Positions 1,704 to 47,637 of a DNA stretch of 64,000 bases are shown one piece after another; the stretch's first letter is position 1; every line of letters begins with the position of its first letter. Made by a program: the position numbers and the translations under genes. Under the pieces are notes generated by a model, which saw nothing but the letters and a program-made list of their open reading frames with translations, did not search any database and was not told the origin of the DNA. Where the stretch lies: the IMG/VR virus record IMGVR_UViG_3300044609_000721; one strand, given 5' to 3'. Source of the DNA: a virus.

Positions 1704-3308
1704 TCATGCATCAACGTGTTCGTCAACCCCATCGTAAATATTATCTCGGAGAAACTCATAGTGAGAAGGTAATGTTTGAACATACTCAACAATATGATCT
1801 CTATATTGTTCATATTTTCGCTTGGAGTCTTCAATCCTATCTAAAGGCCATCCATTACTTTCATAGATTTGCTCAACTTGCCTCTTATACGAAAGTGGTT
1901 TCATTCCCATTCCAGCAGCAATATAATTTGTACCACTGGTTCTAGTCTCCCAGTAATTATTCTGAAGTGATCCTGCAAGGAAACTTTGATATGATGCTTG
2001 ATGATTCACAAATACGTTCATCATATCTGGATTGTATTCATTAATGTTTGTTGCCCATCTCCAGTATGGAGTATCATCTCTCATAGAGAACGCATAGTGC
2101 ATAGAAACAAAATCCACAAATCCAGTCAATTCATGATCAACAGCAAAGTTGTATCCATCAATTTCAGATCTGGTTACTCTACCCTCTCTACGATTGATAA
2201 GATCTACCAGTTTAATCACATTTTCATGAGTTGTGAGCAGTCCTGTAGATTCTAAAGGTTCTACGAATCCATAGGACAATCCAATTCCAACAACGTTTCT
2301 AACCCATGCACGTTCTCTCTTTCCATGACGAATATTAATATGGAACATTTCTGCTTCTTCTGCTCTCTTTGGATCAGTTTTTGCTAAATGCTCTCTGAAT
2401 TCTTTTTGTGCATCCTCTTTAGATGTAAAGCGAGATGAGTAAACATATCCCGTTCCAATACGATTCCAGAGAGGAATATTCCAAACCCATCCATTGTCTA
2501 GTGCATGACAATCGGTAACATTGTGCATTTCATTTTCCCTATCAATATAGGGGATTCTGCAAGCCCATGCACTATCGTTTGCAAGTTTCTTACTGAAAGG
2601 TCTGAAAATAGAACCCATATACCCCTCAAGGAGCATGGATTTAAATCCAGTACAATCAATATAAAGATCTGCACAAATTGCAGTCTCTTCATCAAGAACT
2701 AGATATTTGATTGATTGATCTTTGTTTGGTTCATATCCAGTAATGTTACCAACAATATGTTGAACTCCATTAGGAATACAAATATTTTCCTTTAACCACT
2801 TACCAAATAGTTCCGCATCCATGTGGTATGCAGTATCATATTTAAAACTAAAGTTTCTAATTTTATTGTCTTTATTTCTGGTCTGTTTGTTGTACTTGGC
2901 CAAGAAGGTATTGGCATTATAGAACTCAGCAAAAGTATCTGGAGTATAACTCTCATCAAAGAGAGCAATTTCTGCCCAAGTATTCAGACCATTATGCTTA
3001 TCGGTGAAATCAAACTCTGCACCAAAAGGATATTCAAAATGACTTCCATCATTTTCACGGAAGTTAGTAAATCGAATAGAATTTTTGTAAGTTGCATTAC
3101 ATGCCTTCATCCAATCTTCATCCTTAATATCCAAAAGATCTAAGAATCGATTGATATGACCAAGAGTAGATTCTCCCACGCCAACTGTTTTGACATTGGG
3201 AGATTCAACTAAAGCAATTTCCAAAAATGGGCACAGTTTACTAAGTGCTGCAGCAGTCATCCATCCAGAAGAACCACCACCAACAATTACGACGCTTTCA
3301 ATTTTCAT
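1704..3308 (-). CDS. prnA: Flavin-dependent tryptophan halogenase, PrnA family
   Basis: GGGSSGW FAD motif, VGVGEST, ATYK (catalytic Lys region), GWVWNIP (WxWxIP), FVEPLESTG. Confidence 0.92.
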   Translation of the reverse strand: MKIESVVIVGGGSSGWMTAAALSKLCPFLEIALVESPNVKTVGVGESTLGHINRFLDLLDIKDEDWMKACNATYKNSIRFTNFRENDGSHFEYPFGAEFDFTDKHNGLNTWAEIALFDESYTPDTFAEFYNANTFLAKYNKQTRNKDNKIRNFSFKYDTAYHMDAELFGKWLKENICIPNGVQHIVGNITGYEPNKDQSIKYLVLDEETAICADLYIDCTGFKSMLLEGYMGSIFRPFSKKLANDSAWACRIPYIDRENEMHNVTDCHALDNGWVWNIPLWNRIGTGYVYSSRFTSKEDAQKEFREHLAKTDPKRAEEAEMFHINIRHGKRERAWVRNVVGIGLSYGFVEPLESTGLLTTHENVIKLVDLINRREGRVTRSEIDGYNFAVDHELTGFVDFVSMHYAFSMRDDTPYWRWATNINEYNPDMMNVFVNHQASYQSFLAGSLQNNYWETRTSGTNYIAAGMGMKPLSYKRQVEQIYESNGWPLDRIEDSKRKYEQYRDHIVEYVQTLPSHYEFLRDNIYDGVDEHVDA

Positions 3309-40538: not shown

Positions 40539-40833
40539 GGGTCTTGATCTCAAATAAAGAAGACTTATAGTATCTGGAGATCTTTTTAGTCTTTTTCCAC
40601 TTTTCATGTTTAGTGGAATCGGTAGAATGAATTTTCTGAAGTGCTTTCAATTCTTCTAAGGTTTTATAAATTTTTCTATTCAGGACAGCACTATGTCCTT
40701 CATCCTGATTTGGAATATAATTGTCTTGAGGTACAAGACTTTCCACTTCAATCTCGCCTTCTGGGATGCGTTGTTGCATCTCCTCTGGAAGATCTTCGTA
40801 TTTAATTTCAGGCAAATCCATTAAGTTCTCCAT
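40513..40833 (-). CDS. Hypothetical protein (106 aa)
   Basis: ORF coupled to upstream stop. Confidence 0.65.
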   Translation of the reverse strand: MENLMDLPEIKYEDLPEEMQQRIPEGEIEVESLVPQDNYIPNQDEGHSAVLNRKIYKTLEELKALQKIHSTDSTKHEKWKKTKKISRYYKSSLFEIKTLDKLGEMD

Positions 40834-43800
40834 TAAGTACCAGTATTATCTAGATTGTCTTCATAGTATGTTTCACCACCTGGCAAGTTTGCTGGCAGAC
40901 TATAACCATACCTATAACGAATCTGACCATCATCACCTTTTCTTCCAGGTATATCATTTCTGACTTGAGTAACCTTTATCTGGAAGGTGAAATACTGTCC
41001 GCTAATATTAGCAGGTTTATCATATATCGTCAAGTTTCTAGTGAGTCCCCACTCTGGAGAGGTTTTATCCCACCAAGGTTGAGTACCCTCACTTTGTAAT
41101 GGTGGGAATGTACCAGTAACAGTATCGTTTACGGCCCACCCAGCACCCAATCCCCACTTAGGGATTCCTCTCAATCTAATTTTAGTTGACCAAGTATTTC
41201 CAATCTTAACTGGATTCCACCATAGGGCAAGTTCCAATGATTTTGGTTTGTAAATACCATCTCTGTTGATACTATTATTATCTGCTCCTTCATATGTTCC
41301 ATATCTCAATCTCTGTAGATCCAAATCATTCGTGGGATTTGAATCGGTAGATCCCCAAAAATAATGAAAGGGGAACTCTACACCACTCATATCATTTGTC
41401 CAAACACCTTGACCCATCCCAGGAATAGTTACATCATAAGTCGATCCAGAAGAATTGTATAGTGCATATTCATTGCCGTTAAATATGATACTAAATCTAG
41501 TTGGTCTCGATCCACCAAATCCTCCACTACCATGGCGATATGATTCATCATTTGTTCCAGGACGTTGATAACCAGAAATAAATCCTCCTGGTGCTTGATA
41601 AAAATGTTCAACAGTTACTGCTGGATGATTGATAACAAATGTCTTACCAGAAGAACCACCAAAAGCAGTAGAATCACCATTCTGGCAAGATGCAGATCCA
41701 TACTTTAAATCATAAGCAGTAAGTCCAGATCTTCCTCGGCGGCCGCCTCCTCCACCGCCACCAGGACCATCACCAATTCTATGGTCACTACCATACTTAC
41801 CGCAGTACATATCAGTTGACCAAATTTTATTCATGGATGGATTGTAAAGTTCTAAAGCAAGGCCTGCTGGGTTATCTTTCCAGTTATTACCATCTTCACC
41901 ATTATAAAGAAGGAACCTAAACACATATCTTCCAGCAGAAGAATTTGAAAATGTAATTGTATTTGGTACAGAACTTCTAAAGTCTGAGCATGTTCCAATC
42001 AAAGTCCAATTATTAGCTCCATTAAGATCTGCAGGTAGAGTAGAAGGGAATGCTGAATTTGAATTCAGATCTGGATTCCTATCGGGTTCACCATTATAAA
42101 ATCTAGATCCATCAACATATGATGATTGACCTGGATCATACCATGCTGCTCTGTAGATTCCGACTTTATTATCGCACAACACTTTAATTGTGTGAGTTCC
42201 TACAGAAGATAATTCTAAATTTATCCTAACATCTTGATATTGACCTTGTACTGGATCATGATCATTTACCCATACAGACCTTTCTGCCAACCAGTTACTC
42301 CAAGATGGATGATATTTACTTACCGAGTATAGTGGTGGGTTTGAAAATAGTGGTATTGCATCCCTAAGAAATCCATACGATTCATTCGTATTGATATCAG
42401 TTTTTGAAATGTTGTCTCCACTGTACAAATTATTCTGCCAATTACCCCAAGGTGCAGGATCACACCCATCATTAGAGTTGCTACTCTTGACATAAGAATC
42501 TCCACCATCATTCGATCCTTGTGAACTTCTTGTTGCTCCACCTGATCCCACAACTATAGTAAGAGTCGCACCAGGAGTTACAGGTACATCAGAAGTCCAA
42601 GCATATCCACCACCGCCTCCACCACTTCCATGATCATCACCAGTTGGATCTTTAGCACCGCTTCCGCCGCCTCCAATACAAACAACTTCACTCAAAGATG
42701 TAACTCCTACTGGAACAGTCCAAGAATATGATCCTGGTGATGTATATGAAAGTGTACTGCTGCCATACTTAATTCTTACGGCTCCATTTCCACCAGCACC
42801 GCCTGTCCCGCCAGGGGCGCATCCTCCTCCACCGCCGCCATAGGCGCCTCCAGATGCCCCGTTAGCAGTGCTACTGCTGGACCCATTGGATAAGTGGTAC
42901 CCGTCTAGGGAGACCCCGTGGCCTCCTCCACCGCCCTTGGTGGCGATGGTGGCAGTATTCTTGGATTGCCCCGTCTCATATCTCCCGCCTGCACCGCCTC
43001 CATACTTACCTGAAGTTGGATCATCGCTTCCACCATTGCCACCATCATTACCAACTCCAACGTGGACTTTACCAGAAATACCTAATTGATAATCGTCCAA
43101 TCCACCATGACCACCAGTAGAGTAGCATAGAACATTTTTATGTGCATTCGATCCATTTTCCAAGAAAGATAAACATCCTTGGCCTCCACCTCCACCACCT
43201 CCACCAACAGAAGCAATTAACTGACCATTAATATAAAGTTCTGAGGATCCTCCTCCTCCACCTCCACCACCTGAGGCTCCATTTTGCCCCGATGTTCCAC
43301 CTGGAGATCCACCATTAAATGATTTTAATAATTTTTTTTGTTCATTACTGAAATGTATTCCAGGGCGGCCACCTTCTCCAACTACGGCAACTATGGTATT
43401 CGTTATGGATGGATCCAAAGAGATGTTAAATCTCAATAAAGATCCAGTTCCTCCAGAATTATTTCCAGATCCCGAACCACCATTAGATCCCCTATCACCA
43501 CCGCCTGCTCCTCCGCCAGCGCCAATCATAATTACATCCATACTATTAATACCTATAGGTGTAGTATGTTCGTAAATTCCGTGGGCACTATATCTCTGTA
43601 TAGATCCACAGATCAACATTGGTTGAACTTCAATTGGTAAGGTTTTTATTTTTGTATTTACTGGTAATAACCCTCCACATCTCTCAGCAACAATTGAAGG
43701 ATCATCCAAGATATCATCATAATCTTCGGCTGTACATTCACTCATAACCCTAGGATCATAACAAATCCTAGTATTCTCATCAATATCAATACATTCTAGT

Positions 43801-44174
43801 TCCCCAAGTAATCCAGGATCACCTATGGTATCAAGTAAAACTGTTGGTGGAGAATCGATTGCAACTGTAGCAGGAAGATCACTAACAGGATCTTCTGGAC
43901 AATCATAATATTTTCCAGTATCAATCAATCCAGTACCTTCACTGGAAGCAATATCACATATTGGTCCATATGGACCATTAGGAGTATATTTTTGTAAAAC
44001 TGTAACAGACTTACAAAGTGATGCTTTCTTCAAAGATGGTGGTCTGGTAGTAGAAGTGGTAGTATCTTCGACTGAAGATTCGACGATAACTTCTCTTATT
44101 ATAATTTCTGGTGTAGGTTCAGGGATAATGTCACAAATTGGACCATACAACCCATTAGGAAAATAGATTGTCAT
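40833..44174 (-). CDS. Large glycine-rich virion structural/fibre protein (1113 aa)
   Basis: Duplicated PNGxYGPICDI N-terminal motif; several MIGAGGG/CIGGGGSG glycine-rich modules. Confidence 0.72.
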   Translation of the reverse strand: MTIYFPNGLYGPICDIIPEPTPEIIIREVIVESSVEDTTTSTTRPPSLKKASLCKSVTVLQKYTPNGPYGPICDIASSEGTGLIDTGKYYDCPEDPVSDLPATVAIDSPPTVLLDTIGDPGLLGELECIDIDENTRICYDPRVMSECTAEDYDDILDDPSIVAERCGGLLPVNTKIKTLPIEVQPMLICGSIQRYSAHGIYEHTTPIGINSMDVIMIGAGGGAGGGDRGSNGGSGSGNNSGGTGSLLRFNISLDPSITNTIVAVVGEGGRPGIHFSNEQKKLLKSFNGGSPGGTSGQNGASGGGGGGGGSSELYINGQLIASVGGGGGGGGQGCLSFLENGSNAHKNVLCYSTGGHGGLDDYQLGISGKVHVGVGNDGGNGGSDDPTSGKYGGGAGGRYETGQSKNTATIATKGGGGGHGVSLDGYHLSNGSSSSTANGASGGAYGGGGGGCAPGGTGGAGGNGAVRIKYGSSTLSYTSPGSYSWTVPVGVTSLSEVVCIGGGGSGAKDPTGDDHGSGGGGGGYAWTSDVPVTPGATLTIVVGSGGATRSSQGSNDGGDSYVKSSNSNDGCDPAPWGNWQNNLYSGDNISKTDINTNESYGFLRDAIPLFSNPPLYSVSKYHPSWSNWLAERSVWVNDHDPVQGQYQDVRINLELSSVGTHTIKVLCDNKVGIYRAAWYDPGQSSYVDGSRFYNGEPDRNPDLNSNSAFPSTLPADLNGANNWTLIGTCSDFRSSVPNTITFSNSSAGRYVFRFLLYNGEDGNNWKDNPAGLALELYNPSMNKIWSTDMYCGKYGSDHRIGDGPGGGGGGGRRGRSGLTAYDLKYGSASCQNGDSTAFGGSSGKTFVINHPAVTVEHFYQAPGGFISGYQRPGTNDESYRHGSGGFGGSRPTRFSIIFNGNEYALYNSSGSTYDVTIPGMGQGVWTNDMSGVEFPFHYFWGSTDSNPTNDLDLQRLRYGTYEGADNNSINRDGIYKPKSLELALWWNPVKIGNTWSTKIRLRGIPKWGLGAGWAVNDTVTGTFPPLQSEGTQPWWDKTSPEWGLTRNLTIYDKPANISGQYFTFQIKVTQVRNDIPGRKGDDGQIRYRYGYSLPANLPGGETYYEDNLDNTGT

Positions 44175-44226
44175 TACATACGAAAGGTTTTATTTTATTT
44201 AGATAACAATTCAAAACAAAAAAACG

Positions 44227-44234
44227 TATAAATA
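44227..44234 (+). promoter_or_regulatory. Late promoter TATAAATA heading the plus-strand island
   Basis: Exact motif. Confidence 0.75.
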
Positions 44235-44239
44235 ATCTC

Positions 44240-44473
44240 AGGAGGAGAAATCCTTCGGTTAGAGATCAGATGTATTACTAAAAGATTCCAGCAATGGCTC
44301 TTTCATTAATCCTTCACCTCTAATTGAATTACGATTCAATTTTAAATAGAAGTAATCCCAGACGATTCACCTACAATTGTCTGTGGGAGCGATTCGTCTG
44401 GCATTATGTCATGGACGGATTGAATCGTTTTCTCCTCTCCTTAAACACATTCTTTTCCTTAAGGAGAAAACAA
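44240..44473 (+). ncRNA. Candidate ~230-nt multi-stem 5' leader RNA
   Basis: Nested inverted repeats: 44242-44250/44429-44437, 44331-44340/44419-44428, 44358-44365/44394-44401, 44259-44264/44318-44323. Confidence 0.6.
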
Positions 44474-45301
44474 ATGGCAGAACCCGTTTATATGCCCGAT
44501 CCATGGGCAGCACTCGCATCACAGCACTCAGACATCCGTAGAGAAGGTTCTGTAGAGCGTGGCGAGATTCGTTATGACATCGCAACTAAGACTGGCGATG
44601 TTCGTGAAGCAGTTCTCGTTGGAAATTCTGATCTTCGTAGAGAAGGAGCAGTCGGTCTTGGCGAGACTAAGTATGCTATCGCTGCTTCATCAGAAAACAC
44701 CAACCGTGATGTTTTAACTTCTGGTTATCACACACAAGTTAAGGTAGACGAAGCTGCTGATAAGATTCAGCAAAGAGCTACCGACTTCTATATTTCTGGA
44801 CAAGCAAGAGATTTTGATCAGTCCCGTGATCTTGCTGCTCTAAGAGCAGTCACAGACCTCGCTTCTCAAAAACTCAGTTCAGAAATTCTTCTCGCTACTG
44901 AGAAGACTGCTACTGCTGCTGCTCTTGAGTCAGCAAAAGTTGCTGCTGCTGTAGCACTTGGTCAGCATCAACTCAGCAGAGAGATTGCTGAAGGTAAGTA
45001 TGAGACTAGCAAGCAGATTTCTTACGAAAATGAGAAGACTCGTGACCTCATCAATTCACTCAAGAATGATGAACTCAATCGTATGCTGATTGAGCGTAAC
45101 ACCGACCTAAGTGGTTGCCGTCAGGATTACTGGGCTGCCAGAGAGGGTCTGTTCAACAGTCAGTTCGCTGCTCTTTCTTCACAAGTTAATTCTCAGTTCA
45201 ACGCTTTAAACAGCCAAGTAGCTGAGACCCGTCAGGGTATGGTTAACTTCGGAACCATGGCTGGAGTTGGTCAGTCTTCAACCAGCAACGCTGTACGCTG
45301 A
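44474..45301 (+). CDS. Ala-rich helical hypothetical protein (275 aa, start MAEPVYMPD) with internal repeats
   Basis: AAGGAG SD at 44461; repeated SD[IL]RREG...GE.[RK]Y.IA units. Confidence 0.8.
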   Translation: MAEPVYMPDPWAALASQHSDIRREGSVERGEIRYDIATKTGDVREAVLVGNSDLRREGAVGLGETKYAIAASSENTNRDVLTSGYHTQVKVDEAADKIQQRATDFYISGQARDFDQSRDLAALRAVTDLASQKLSSEILLATEKTATAAALESAKVAAAVALGQHQLSREIAEGKYETSKQISYENEKTRDLINSLKNDELNRMLIERNTDLSGCRQDYWAAREGLFNSQFAALSSQVNSQFNALNSQVAETRQGMVNFGTMAGVGQSSTSNAVR

Positions 45302-45321
45302 TTTAGTTCAGTAGTTATCAA

Positions 45322-45347
45322 GGGGGAGACCATCTCCCCCCTTTTTT
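45322..45347 (+). terminator. Intra-operon Rho-independent terminator
   Basis: GGGGGAGA-CCA-TCTCCCCC followed by T6. Confidence 0.85.
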
Positions 45348-45361
45348 AAAGGAGAATAACT

Positions 45362-45982
45362 ATGGACTCAGCAGAAAGAAGACTTATTGACCTTTATAAT
45401 CTCCTCGCTCAATACCAAAGAAATGGAGATTCAGATCTTGCTGGAAATATTCAGACAATACGTACTGAAATAACCCAGATGTTAAATGCCCGTGCTGGTG
45501 GCAATGACAATATTAACATCGTTATAGATGGCGGAGAATGCCCCGATGAATGCCCACCAGGGCCACCAGGACCACCAGGAGAACAAGGTCCACCAGGACC
45601 ACCAGGACCCCAAGGGGAACCAGGGGAGGGAACACCAGGACCACCAGGGGAGCAAGGTCCACCAGGACCGCAGGGACCACCAGGAGAGTGCTCATGCAAA
45701 TGCAAAAGCATCTTGGTTTCATCTGATTATACTGCTACTTGTGATGATTACTACATCGGTGTCAATAGTGACGGACCTGTTACTATTACGTTACCTTCAG
45801 AATGTACCGACTGTTGTGAGATCATTGTAAAGGCAGAGATGGGTCCGCCATTGGGAAATCGTAAAGTTACTGTAACTACTGTTGATGGTAGTTACATTGA
45901 TGGTAAAGACAAATATGTTATGGAAGTACCTTACCAATCGGTCAATGTATTTTGTCGTGGTGGAGATTGGTACATCATCTAA
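45362..45982 (+). CDS. Collagen-like protein (G-X-Y repeats flanked by Cys motifs) with C-terminal beta domain
   Basis: ECPDECPP-(GPP/GEQ/GEP)n-GECSCKCK; C-terminal YTAT.DDYYIGV...VTITLP...RGG.W.II. Confidence 0.85.
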
Positions 45983-45993
45983 CGGAGTAAACA

Positions 45994-46605
45994 ATGGCAT
46001 ACTTAGCACAACCCACATCAAAAACAGATTATGGAGTGGTTGGAGTTGGAGATTTCATTAATGTTTTTGATGGATTCATTTCATTAGAACAAGATGTATC
46101 TCCTGACGCTTCGGTATCTTTCAATCAAGTTACTATTGATGGAGAGGTTGCTGTAACTTCAGTAACACCTTCTTCTGGTGATGGTATTAAATTAACTGAT
46201 GTTGTTACTACAGGTAACGATACGTCGTTCACCATTTATAACACTGGTGTTCTTTCTTTAACTGCTGGTGATGGTATTAGTATCTCAGACAGTACTGGTT
46301 ATATTACTATCTCTGCTTCTGGTGCTGATTTAATTTCCACTATTGGAGTTACTGGTTCTTATACCGCAACTGCCGATGATGAATACATCGGTGTCTTTAG
46401 TGCATCCGCAGTTACAATCACACTTCCAGTTGGCGTTACTGGTCGTGTTTATATCATCAAAGATGAGTATGGTCAAGGATCTGGAAAGATTACTATCAAA
46501 CCATCTGGGACTGAAAAAATTGATAATAAAGCAGATTACATTATATCTGTACCTAATCAATCAGTATCCGTCGTATTTCGTGGCGGACAATGGAGAATCA
46601 TCTAA
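45994..46605 (+). CDS. Fibre-like protein sharing the C-terminal domain of the collagen protein
   Basis: YTATADDEYIGV...VTITLP...IDNK..YIISVPNQSVSVVFRGGQWRII; GV.SLTAGDGISIS repeats. Confidence 0.8.
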   Translation: MAYLAQPTSKTDYGVVGVGDFINVFDGFISLEQDVSPDASVSFNQVTIDGEVAVTSVTPSSGDGIKLTDVVTTGNDTSFTIYNTGVLSLTAGDGISISDSTGYITISASGADLISTIGVTGSYTATADDEYIGVFSASAVTITLPVGVTGRVYIIKDEYGQGSGKITIKPSGTEKIDNKADYIISVPNQSVSVVFRGGQWRII

Positions 46606-46617
46606 TTTTATAAAACC

Positions 46618-47208
46618 ATGAACTTTAATATCAAACCATCTCTACCAGATGACAGAGATTACATTTATAGAAACGATAGCACTGAAGTTCTCAGAGAATC
46701 TGTAGACCTTCGTGAGTGGGATACTCTACCACAATCCAAAGAATTGATCGAAAACACATTCAATCAAGATGGAATATATTTAAGAGATGGTCTGAAGTCA
46801 CTAAAAAAATTAGGCAAAATTTCTTCCTATCAAAAATTAATTAGCATTTATTATATTACTGAAGTGTTGAATCACAACAAACCAGTTGTATTCGGAATGG
46901 AAATTTATGATAGTTTTATGGATCTGAATGAGCGTATTTCTACTGTAAACTTTCCAGGAAGAAAAGAAAGAAGTATTGGTGGCCATGCTATGTGTATGGT
47001 TGGATATGATATGAGGAAAAGATTATTTTTAGCAAAAAATAATCTTGGAACTAAATGGGGAGACAACGGATACTGTTGGATTCCTTTTGATTACATTAGG
47101 CAGGAAGGATACGACATTTGGACTTTTGATATATCAAATCAAGCAGGAGAACCTAATGTACTACCACAGACCATACCCCTACTACCATCACAGAAGATAT
47201 TGCTATGA
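46618..47208 (+). CDS. Degenerate papain-like (C1A) cysteine peptidase lacking the catalytic Cys segment
   Basis: SVDLREW, GGHAMCMVGYD, KWGDNGYCWIPFDY present; QxxxGSC absent. Confidence 0.75.
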   Translation: MNFNIKPSLPDDRDYIYRNDSTEVLRESVDLREWDTLPQSKELIENTFNQDGIYLRDGLKSLKKLGKISSYQKLISIYYITEVLNHNKPVVFGMEIYDSFMDLNERISTVNFPGRKERSIGGHAMCMVGYDMRKRLFLAKNNLGTKWGDNGYCWIPFDYIRQEGYDIWTFDISNQAGEPNVLPQTIPLLPSQKILL

Positions 47209-47290
47209 CAACTATTATTGGGGTGGTTGCCATCCTTATTACAATAGATATTGGGATTATAACCCATATTATTCTTACTATCCTTACTAA
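47156..47290 (+). CDS. Tyr/His-rich peptide (44 aa, MYYHRPYPYYHHRRYCYDNYYWGG...)
   Basis: AGGAGA SD at 47145-47150, ATG 47156. Confidence 0.7.
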   Translation: MYYHRPYPYYHHRRYCYDNYYWGGCHPYYNRYWDYNPYYSYYPY

Positions 47291-47304
47291 GTAGGAGATT
47301 TAAA

Positions 47305-47598
47305 ATGCATTATTATAGACACAATAGGTATCATAGATACCCCTACTATAGGAGATATTATAGTCATTATCCTTACTACTATAGAAGATATTATGACCCA
47401 TATTATAGATACATGAATAATGCAATTGATAGTGATATCGTAAATATTGATGATGATATTGTCATCTATAGCAATACTCAAAGTAAGGTTGAAGTTTCAG
47501 AAGAACATAAACCAAAGGAAATCGTTATGGAAGTGAATGAAGAAGAGGAAGATGATGATATATCTAATATCGAACCCTCTCGTCTAATTCTTCTATAG
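47305..47598 (+). CDS. Tyr/Arg/His-rich N-terminus with acidic C-terminus (97 aa)
   Basis: AGGAGA SD; MHYYRHNRYHRYPYYRRYYSHYPYYYRRYYDPYYRY then D/E-rich tail. Confidence 0.75.
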   Translation: MHYYRHNRYHRYPYYRRYYSHYPYYYRRYYDPYYRYMNNAIDSDIVNIDDDIVIYSNTQSKVEVSEEHKPKEIVMEVNEEEEDDDISNIEPSRLILL

Positions 47599-47602
47599 CA
47601 AT

Positions 47603-47637
47603 AAAAAAGAGTGGTTTTGCCACTCTTTCTTTTTATT
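47603..47637. terminator. Bidirectional terminator closing the plus-strand island
   Basis: AAAGAGTGG-TTTTG-CCACTCTTT with flanking A and T runs. Confidence 0.8.

Follow-up and report, generated by a model that had tools for sequence, protein, structure and literature searches.

The DNA analysed here, a stretch of 64,000 nucleotides that we call the window, belongs to an 83.8-kb fragment, about 47% complete, of a T4-like cyanomyovirus. Among isolates, Synechococcus phage S-CREM1 is the closest, with 80% nucleotide identity over the baseplate genes. A 299-nt spacer separates the 5' end of a collagen-like gene on the minus strand (40833-44174) from the ATG at 44474, and within it a leader of 234 bases (44240-44473) lies between a T4-type late promoter and a fibre-like gene. 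This gene encodes a 275-aa protein and stands at the head of a plus-strand island in which collagen-like and papain-like genes are also found. The features of the promoter, leader and gene are collected in Table 1. A terminator-like hairpin directly follows the gene and closes a one-gene unit, and the late mRNA that carries the leader is apparently monocistronic. The plus-strand island as a whole (44227-47637: leader, long-helix gene, collagen-like gene and papain-like gene) is absent from S-CREM1 (L284:2734-7230), where psbA comes immediately after the orthologous collagen-like gene; the island is thus an insertion in a variable region.

Table 1. Features of the late promoter, the leader RNA and the downstream gene (positions in the window)
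Feature	Position	Strand	Description
T4-type late promoter TATAAATA	44227..44234	+	TAAATA core at constant distance from P1 in the family members read
P1, 5'-terminal hairpin	44241..44256 (44241-46/44251-56)	+	GGAGGA-GAAA-UCCUUC with GNRA tetraloop; 5' strand SD-like; 3/6 pairs changed on both sides; 95% of cells paired
P2 domain	44258..44324	+	closing helix GUUAGAG/CUCUAAU, 44258-64 with 44318-24; 2/7 pairs covary
Long irregular hairpin inside P2	44269-44315	+	P2a GUAUUA/UAAUCC, P2b AAAGA/UCUUU, P2c CC/GG, variable loop; nearly invariant
P3	44331-42 with 44417-28 (domain 44331..44428)	+	9/11 pairs changed on both sides
P3/P4 internal loop	44343-51 and 44408-16	+	conserved, purine-rich
P4	44352-68 with 44391-44407	+	5/15 pairs changed on both sides
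Apical hairpin of P3 domain	44370-88	+	3/5 pairs changed on both sides
Linker	44429..44452	+	UUUCUCCUC (44429-37) is the 3' strand of the clade-specific P0; may instead pair with the SD
SD hairpin	44453..44468	+	anti-SD pyrimidine tract, UUAA loop, SD GGAG at 44463-66; weak; 99% of cells paired, one-sided changes only
275-aa protein	44474..45301	+	predicted one long alpha-helix (AlphaFold2 helix 19-260, pLDDT 80.6)
Intrinsic-terminator-like hairpin, then T run	45322..45340	+	directly after the 275-aa ORF

Cyanomyoviruses use NATAAATA as their late promoter (PMC2984593). The window carries a box of this TATAAATA/NATAAATA type in a T4-like cyanomyovirus, the box is kept in relatives, and similarity to these relatives begins exactly at its TAAATA in both blastn and nhmmer searches. 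A transcript start near 44240 is predicted from this onset of conservation together with the known NATAAATA promoter. The distance from TATAAATA to the ATG is 239 nt here, against 22-58 nt for the six other TATAAATA boxes in the window. A second sequence, TTTAAATA (44342-44349), matches the late promoter box at 7/8 positions inside the P3/P4 internal loop; it is restricted to the window's clade and is therefore probably incidental.

The helix predicted for the 275-aa protein fits an oligomeric coiled-coil fibre. The protein belongs to no Pfam family, and nothing specific was found for it in Pfam, PHROGs, PDB (by sequence or profile), the ESM Atlas or a Foldseek comparison with viral models. 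Among the candidates scored, 772 are homologues at E <= 0.001; those among the 120 matches listed are all unnamed or 'hypothetical'.

Homologues of this ORF gave access to its upstream regions. A search of IMG/VR returned 52 loci, and further leaders came from pattern scans and protein look-ups, for a total of 25 distinct leaders aligned. All 25, whether from phages or metagenomes, have a TAAATA box directly upstream and an SD and the AUG of an ORF homologue at the 3' end. Sampling by protein alone gave a similar picture: 6 of the 7 homologue loci that yielded DNA carry the leader. The leaders are 74-94% identical to that of the window and the adjoining coding DNA 69-84%, so that the leader is conserved equally or better; at one locus (L025) the leader is 94% identical and the protein 67%. 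Upstream context varies between loci, which makes promoter, leader and gene the conserved unit. The leader occurs once per genome in the window's genome and in five related genomes, two of them complete (250-258 kb), with neither extra copies nor other target genes among these six. The matches that pattern scans found in viral and metagenome contigs were mostly due to chance, and nhmmer retained only leaders that precede homologues or are interrupted by contig ends. In isolate phage records, tblastn did not find the protein homologue, and a search with the region's DNA matched only the neighbouring collagen-like gene (in S-CREM1), yielding no isolate with the leader. The more distant homologue loci (L019, L021, L024, L031-L053 and L281) have no match to the covariance model of the leader, and the boundary of the family is therefore real at this sensitivity.

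A preliminary description of the region had proposed that the late-promoter transcript begins with a long structured non-coding RNA, in which four complementary pairs nest into a multiway junction. All four pairs are present in the sequence: 44242-50/44429-37 (9 nt) and 44331-40/44419-28 (10 nt) are 100% complementary, and 44358-65/44394-401 and 44259-64/44318-23 are each contained in a longer inverted repeat. The RNA from 44240 to 44480 folds to -73.5 kcal/mol, compared with -50.2 +/- 4.1 for shuffled controls (z = -5.72), and 0/200 shuffles fold as well; the leader passes this comparison, which had been named in advance as a check. The minus strand of the leader folds less exceptionally (z = -3.9).

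Covariation among homologous leaders, the other check named in advance, was found in two alignments. A covariance model aligned 25 leaders, with standard pairs in 97.3% of cells; 24/63 pairs are changed on both sides, compared with 3-7 when the partners are slid by 1-3 columns, a count to be read in the knowledge that the members are fairly close relatives and that this main counting alignment is fitted to the structure. Because of that fit, a structure-blind MAFFT alignment of 15 leaders serves as the independent check: in its RNAalifold consensus, 17/66 pairs are changed on both sides. For the model-fitted alignment, none of 500 shuffles matches the count of two-sided changes or the observed covariation score. 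Shuffle test and covariation together support the long structured non-coding leader. In the P2 domain (helices 2-4), 98% of cells are paired; double compensations occur in P2b in 3 sequences (AU to GC, AU to UA), and P2 has one, GC to AU, in L060. The loop of P1 is a GNRA tetraloop (GAAA, GCAA or GAGA) in about 18 of 22 members, as read by eye from the alignment. Inserted segments fall in loops and junctions, not helices; in nine members, P2a and the 3' strand of P2 are separated by ~60-70 additional nt that form a hairpin of their own. When all column pairs were scanned, no convincing pseudoknots or long-range tertiary pairs emerged; besides an alternative fold, to which we return below, there were only short runs in which a purine-rich tract faces a pyrimidine-rich one, and these covary little.

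The plus strand scores 165-274 bits with the leader model and the minus strand at most 43. G-U pairs are frequent, which accounts for the 5-10 times lower score of the minus strand, and the difference marks the element as an RNA of the coding strand. In all 25 members the element lies between promoter and RBS on that strand, with compensatory change, as expected of a cis-acting 5' leader. It is very improbable that there is no functional RNA at all, and that the helices are incidental inverted repeats held in place by recent common descent or a DNA-level signal: the members are indeed related, as the 74-94% leader identities show, and several invariant stems are for that reason uninformative on covariation, but 24 pairs are changed on both sides with pairing kept, the score collapses on the minus strand, insertions spare the helices, and flanking context differs by locus while similarity starts exactly at the promoter. 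The structured leader is real, conserved, strand-specific and single-copy, and it keeps to this gene and this type of promoter.

The leader had also been described as free of any credible short gene, and the relatives bear this out: ORF positions and frames differ among 22 members, one of which is without any leader ORF of at least 20 codons. A hidden small gene in the leader was rejected for this lack of conserved positions and frames. In the window, an in-frame open stretch runs from 44324 and is not conserved. The public gene call at L278:701-1684 (protein P0050) extends the ORF ~30 codons into the leader (327 aa, compared with about 297); some public gene calls, of which this is an example, extend the ORF into the leader wrongly.

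The relatives divide the four pairs of the preliminary description into two groups. P2, P3 and P4 are kept throughout, and the outermost pair, 44242-50/44429-37, is found only in the window and three relatives (L025, L014 and L283). This outer helix, P0 (GAGGAGAAA/TTTCTCCTC), is thus present in 4 of the first 22 leaders aligned and absent from 18. The nested multiway junction can be seen in the window's minimum-free-energy fold, but its closure is a feature of this clade and not of the family. In members without P0, its 5' strand forms the local hairpin P1, which covaries, and its 3' flank lengthens P3. The mechanism first put forward, in which the SD-like 5' end of the transcript pairs with the pyrimidine tract before the RBS, depends on this helix, which occurs in only these 4 leaders. 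In the window P0 and P1 are 3 kcal/mol apart, and the choice between them alters which pyrimidine tract covers the SD; this alternative may be relevant at the level of the clade, and is not a family feature.

The SD and start codon had been placed near 44461-44474, in agreement with the GGAG at 44463-66 and the ATG at 44474. This SD is predicted to be paired in 22/22 members tested (P unpaired 0.02-0.20). For the 17 other SD-bearing genes of the window the median P(SD unpaired) is 0.47, and 3/17 are also occluded. Fixed position, strand specificity and a consistently occluded SD fit the cis-regulatory role that had been suggested for the leader, a role that we infer from these features.

We lean towards the reading that the leader is a cis-acting 5' UTR that stabilises the late fibre-protein mRNA and gates its translation, probably as a platform for binding a factor. 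The late promoter TATAAATA would give rise to an RNA that begins with the P1 hairpin, GNRA-capped in most members, and continues into two compact domains, P2 and then P3/P4 with its conserved purine-rich internal loop. A short pyrimidine tract would keep the SD in a weak hairpin directly before the AUG of the long-helix fibre-like protein. P1 and the tight fold may shield the message from 5'-end-dependent decay, and the occluded SD would make translation conditional. The near-invariant P2 stems and the P3/P4 internal loop could form a docking surface for a trans-acting factor; the candidates are a phage or host protein, or the ribosome, and such a factor would tune translation of the fibre protein late in infection. 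Against this reading, the SD hairpin is weak and shows one-sided changes only, 3 of the 17 control genes are also SD-occluded, and close homologues of the protein (L019, L021 and L281) are preceded by a different leader.

Mere stabilisation would not call for so much invariant sequence, and this leaves room for a sensing function. The P3/P4 domain offers a candidate for such a function: CAGACGA (44359-65) can pair with UCGUCUGG in P4 or with the apical UYGYCUG (44377-83), and the released 3' strand of P4 can form the hairpin UCUGGCA-UUA-UGUCAKG (44397-44413; 44397-44403 with 44407-13). In a riboswitch-like switch, the domain would toggle between the consensus and this alternative fold, triggered by a small molecule, an ion, temperature or the kinetics of co-transcriptional folding, and so change how a pyrimidine tract engages the SD. 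We consider such a switch unlikely. The alternative pairs are standard in 91% of cells, compared with 31-55% in slid controls, and 4 of them are changed on both sides; the leader has a conserved aptamer-like core, covarying helices, invariant or highly conserved junction nucleotides and a GNRA-capped P1; and the choice between P0 and P1 would supply a second toggle in the window's clade. Yet in each of the 22 members the alternative fold is the less stable one, by 1-14 kcal/mol (14 in the window), its helix alt-1 is only 84% paired, and the SD is paired in the predicted ensembles whichever way the P3/P4 domain folds, so that fold and SD are not clearly coupled. Rfam holds no riboswitch match, and the leader stands upstream of one long-helix protein family only, with no pathway genes that would indicate a ligand; since this one gene family is of unknown function, no ligand suggests itself. 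The alternative fold may represent an intermediate of co-transcriptional folding or a state that is regulated.

The RNA might also have a job of its own, as a processed stable non-coding RNA or as a companion RNA that shares its transcript with the fibre protein and works with that protein, in the manner of phi29 pRNA, the RNA partner of a packaging motor. RNAs with a tertiary fold typically have such a size, several domains, a GNRA loop and invariant internal loops, and this RNA is co-transcribed with a structural-looking protein. We regard this as quite improbable: the conserved block is continuous to the AUG, with no terminator or conserved processing signal before the SD, the RNA is never found apart from the gene, and homologous proteins exist without the leader. 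Taken together, it is possible, if rather doubtful, that the leader represents a new class of phage-encoded sensing RNA, be it a riboswitch or a factor-dependent two-fold switch, or a structural RNA partner of the fibre.

The exceptions among the homologues bear on what the RNA serves. L019, L021 and L281 encode close protein homologues (about 69-75% identity) behind an unrelated leader. The protein thus does not need the leader RNA, and the RNA accompanies the T4-type mode of expression, not the protein itself. Phage groups seem to have swapped the coding region while leaving its leader behind. At these three loci the leader is of a third type (GACGGAATYCTATAG...TTAYAWAATTCC), and the proteins have an N-terminal extension.

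The Rfam search that had been suggested for the leader found no family at threshold. A permissive scan of 43900-44800 and of four relatives with Rfam 15 gave nothing better than E about 0.7-1, and a scan of 14 related loci at gathering thresholds gave tRNAs only; the leader is uncatalogued in Rfam. The best match is freshwater-2 (RF02980), with 21.4 bits in the window and at best 27.6 bits (L279), below that family's gathering score of 49.9; five phage genomes have no freshwater-2 match above the cut-off. With scores below the cut-off, and sub-threshold matches in two unrelated control genomes as well, the leader is not a member. The freshwater-2 alignment (44397-44476) sets the first hairpin of that family on the alternative hairpin UCUGGCA-UUA-UGUCAKG, and the RBS context AAGGAGAAAACAAAUG is common to both RNAs. 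Both features hint at an origin of freshwater-2 RNAs in related phages. We found nothing relevant in the literature on 'freshwater-2'.

Comparative genomics has brought to light orphan structured leader motifs in metagenomes and phages (Weinberg et al. 2010, PMC2864571), and a 2023 catalogue lists 8,495 candidate structured RNAs mined from IMG/VR (PMC10690425), among which the present leader might be found. The leader resembles these orphans, including freshwater-2 RF02980 and the cyanophage manA and wcaG RNAs, in being borne by phages or metagenomes, in lying directly 5' of a gene and in being recognised by covariation. The likeness to freshwater-2 is confined to the 3' end of the leader (a UCUGGCA-UUA-UGUCAGG hairpin, a pyrimidine linker and AAGGAGAAAACAAAUG); the leader is ~2.5 times longer, comprises three domains and is associated with a late promoter and a single gene family.

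Two better-known groups of 5' UTR elements offer functional parallels. Bacterial mRNA 5' stabilisers, such as the terminal hairpin of the ompA 5' UTR and the STAB-SD of Bacillus cryIIIA, are short and simple. The leader shares with them a long 5' region that opens with a hairpin, SD-like purines far upstream of the RBS, and a structural-gene mRNA that is presumably abundant; unlike them, it has ~170 more nt of covarying, partly invariant structure, beyond what protection needs. The translational operators of T4-type phages include the gene 32 pseudoknot, the RegA sites and the SD-sequestering hairpins of the late genes e and soc. The gp32 system is also covered in PMC10690425. Like these operators, the element is a T4-type phage leader with an occluded ribosome-binding site, where control of translation is likely to depend on a protein; it has no similarity to them in sequence or structure, and those known from T4 are small. 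For e and soc of T4, the late promoter is located within the hairpin, so that late transcripts escape sequestration, whereas both arms of the SD hairpin are present in the late transcript here.

To our knowledge, few structured RNAs of ~200 nt with good covariation are still uncatalogued, and most known phage leaders are short. The present leader precedes a late gene of structural type in a widespread group of T4-like cyanophages, which as viruses influence primary production in aquatic habitats. If the leader does no more than stabilise and gate an mRNA, it illustrates how late phage genes can be controlled post-transcriptionally and supplies a 5' UTR module that is compact and portable. If sensing is true, the leader would be a rare instance of a riboswitch that is specific to a virus and controls the composition of the virion, by which a cyanophage would set the amount of fibre protein in its virions from the state of the infected cell. 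The clean alignment, defined helices and predicted alternative fold make these readings directly testable by probing and reporter assays.

Other leaders precede more distant members of the same gene family. At L032:2700-3000, L034:2700-3000 and L049:2700-3000, and also at L050, more distant homologues stand behind TATAAATA with a different conserved leader, whose block reads GGGAAYC.ACCCG..CGGTARCGGCGACG..CACCGT.AGTC; these loci may represent a second family of structured leaders for this gene. In the jumbo-phage-like contigs L035-L048, the gene that precedes the homologue has a translated end that, by eye, resembles a LuxR-type regulator. An AAGTA-containing promoter-like motif lies ~150 nt upstream of the homologue in these contigs (locus position ~2850-3000) and is followed by a 5' hairpin, ATGAGAG...CTCTCAT. 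A 5'-terminal hairpin thus recurs before this gene family in unrelated leaders.
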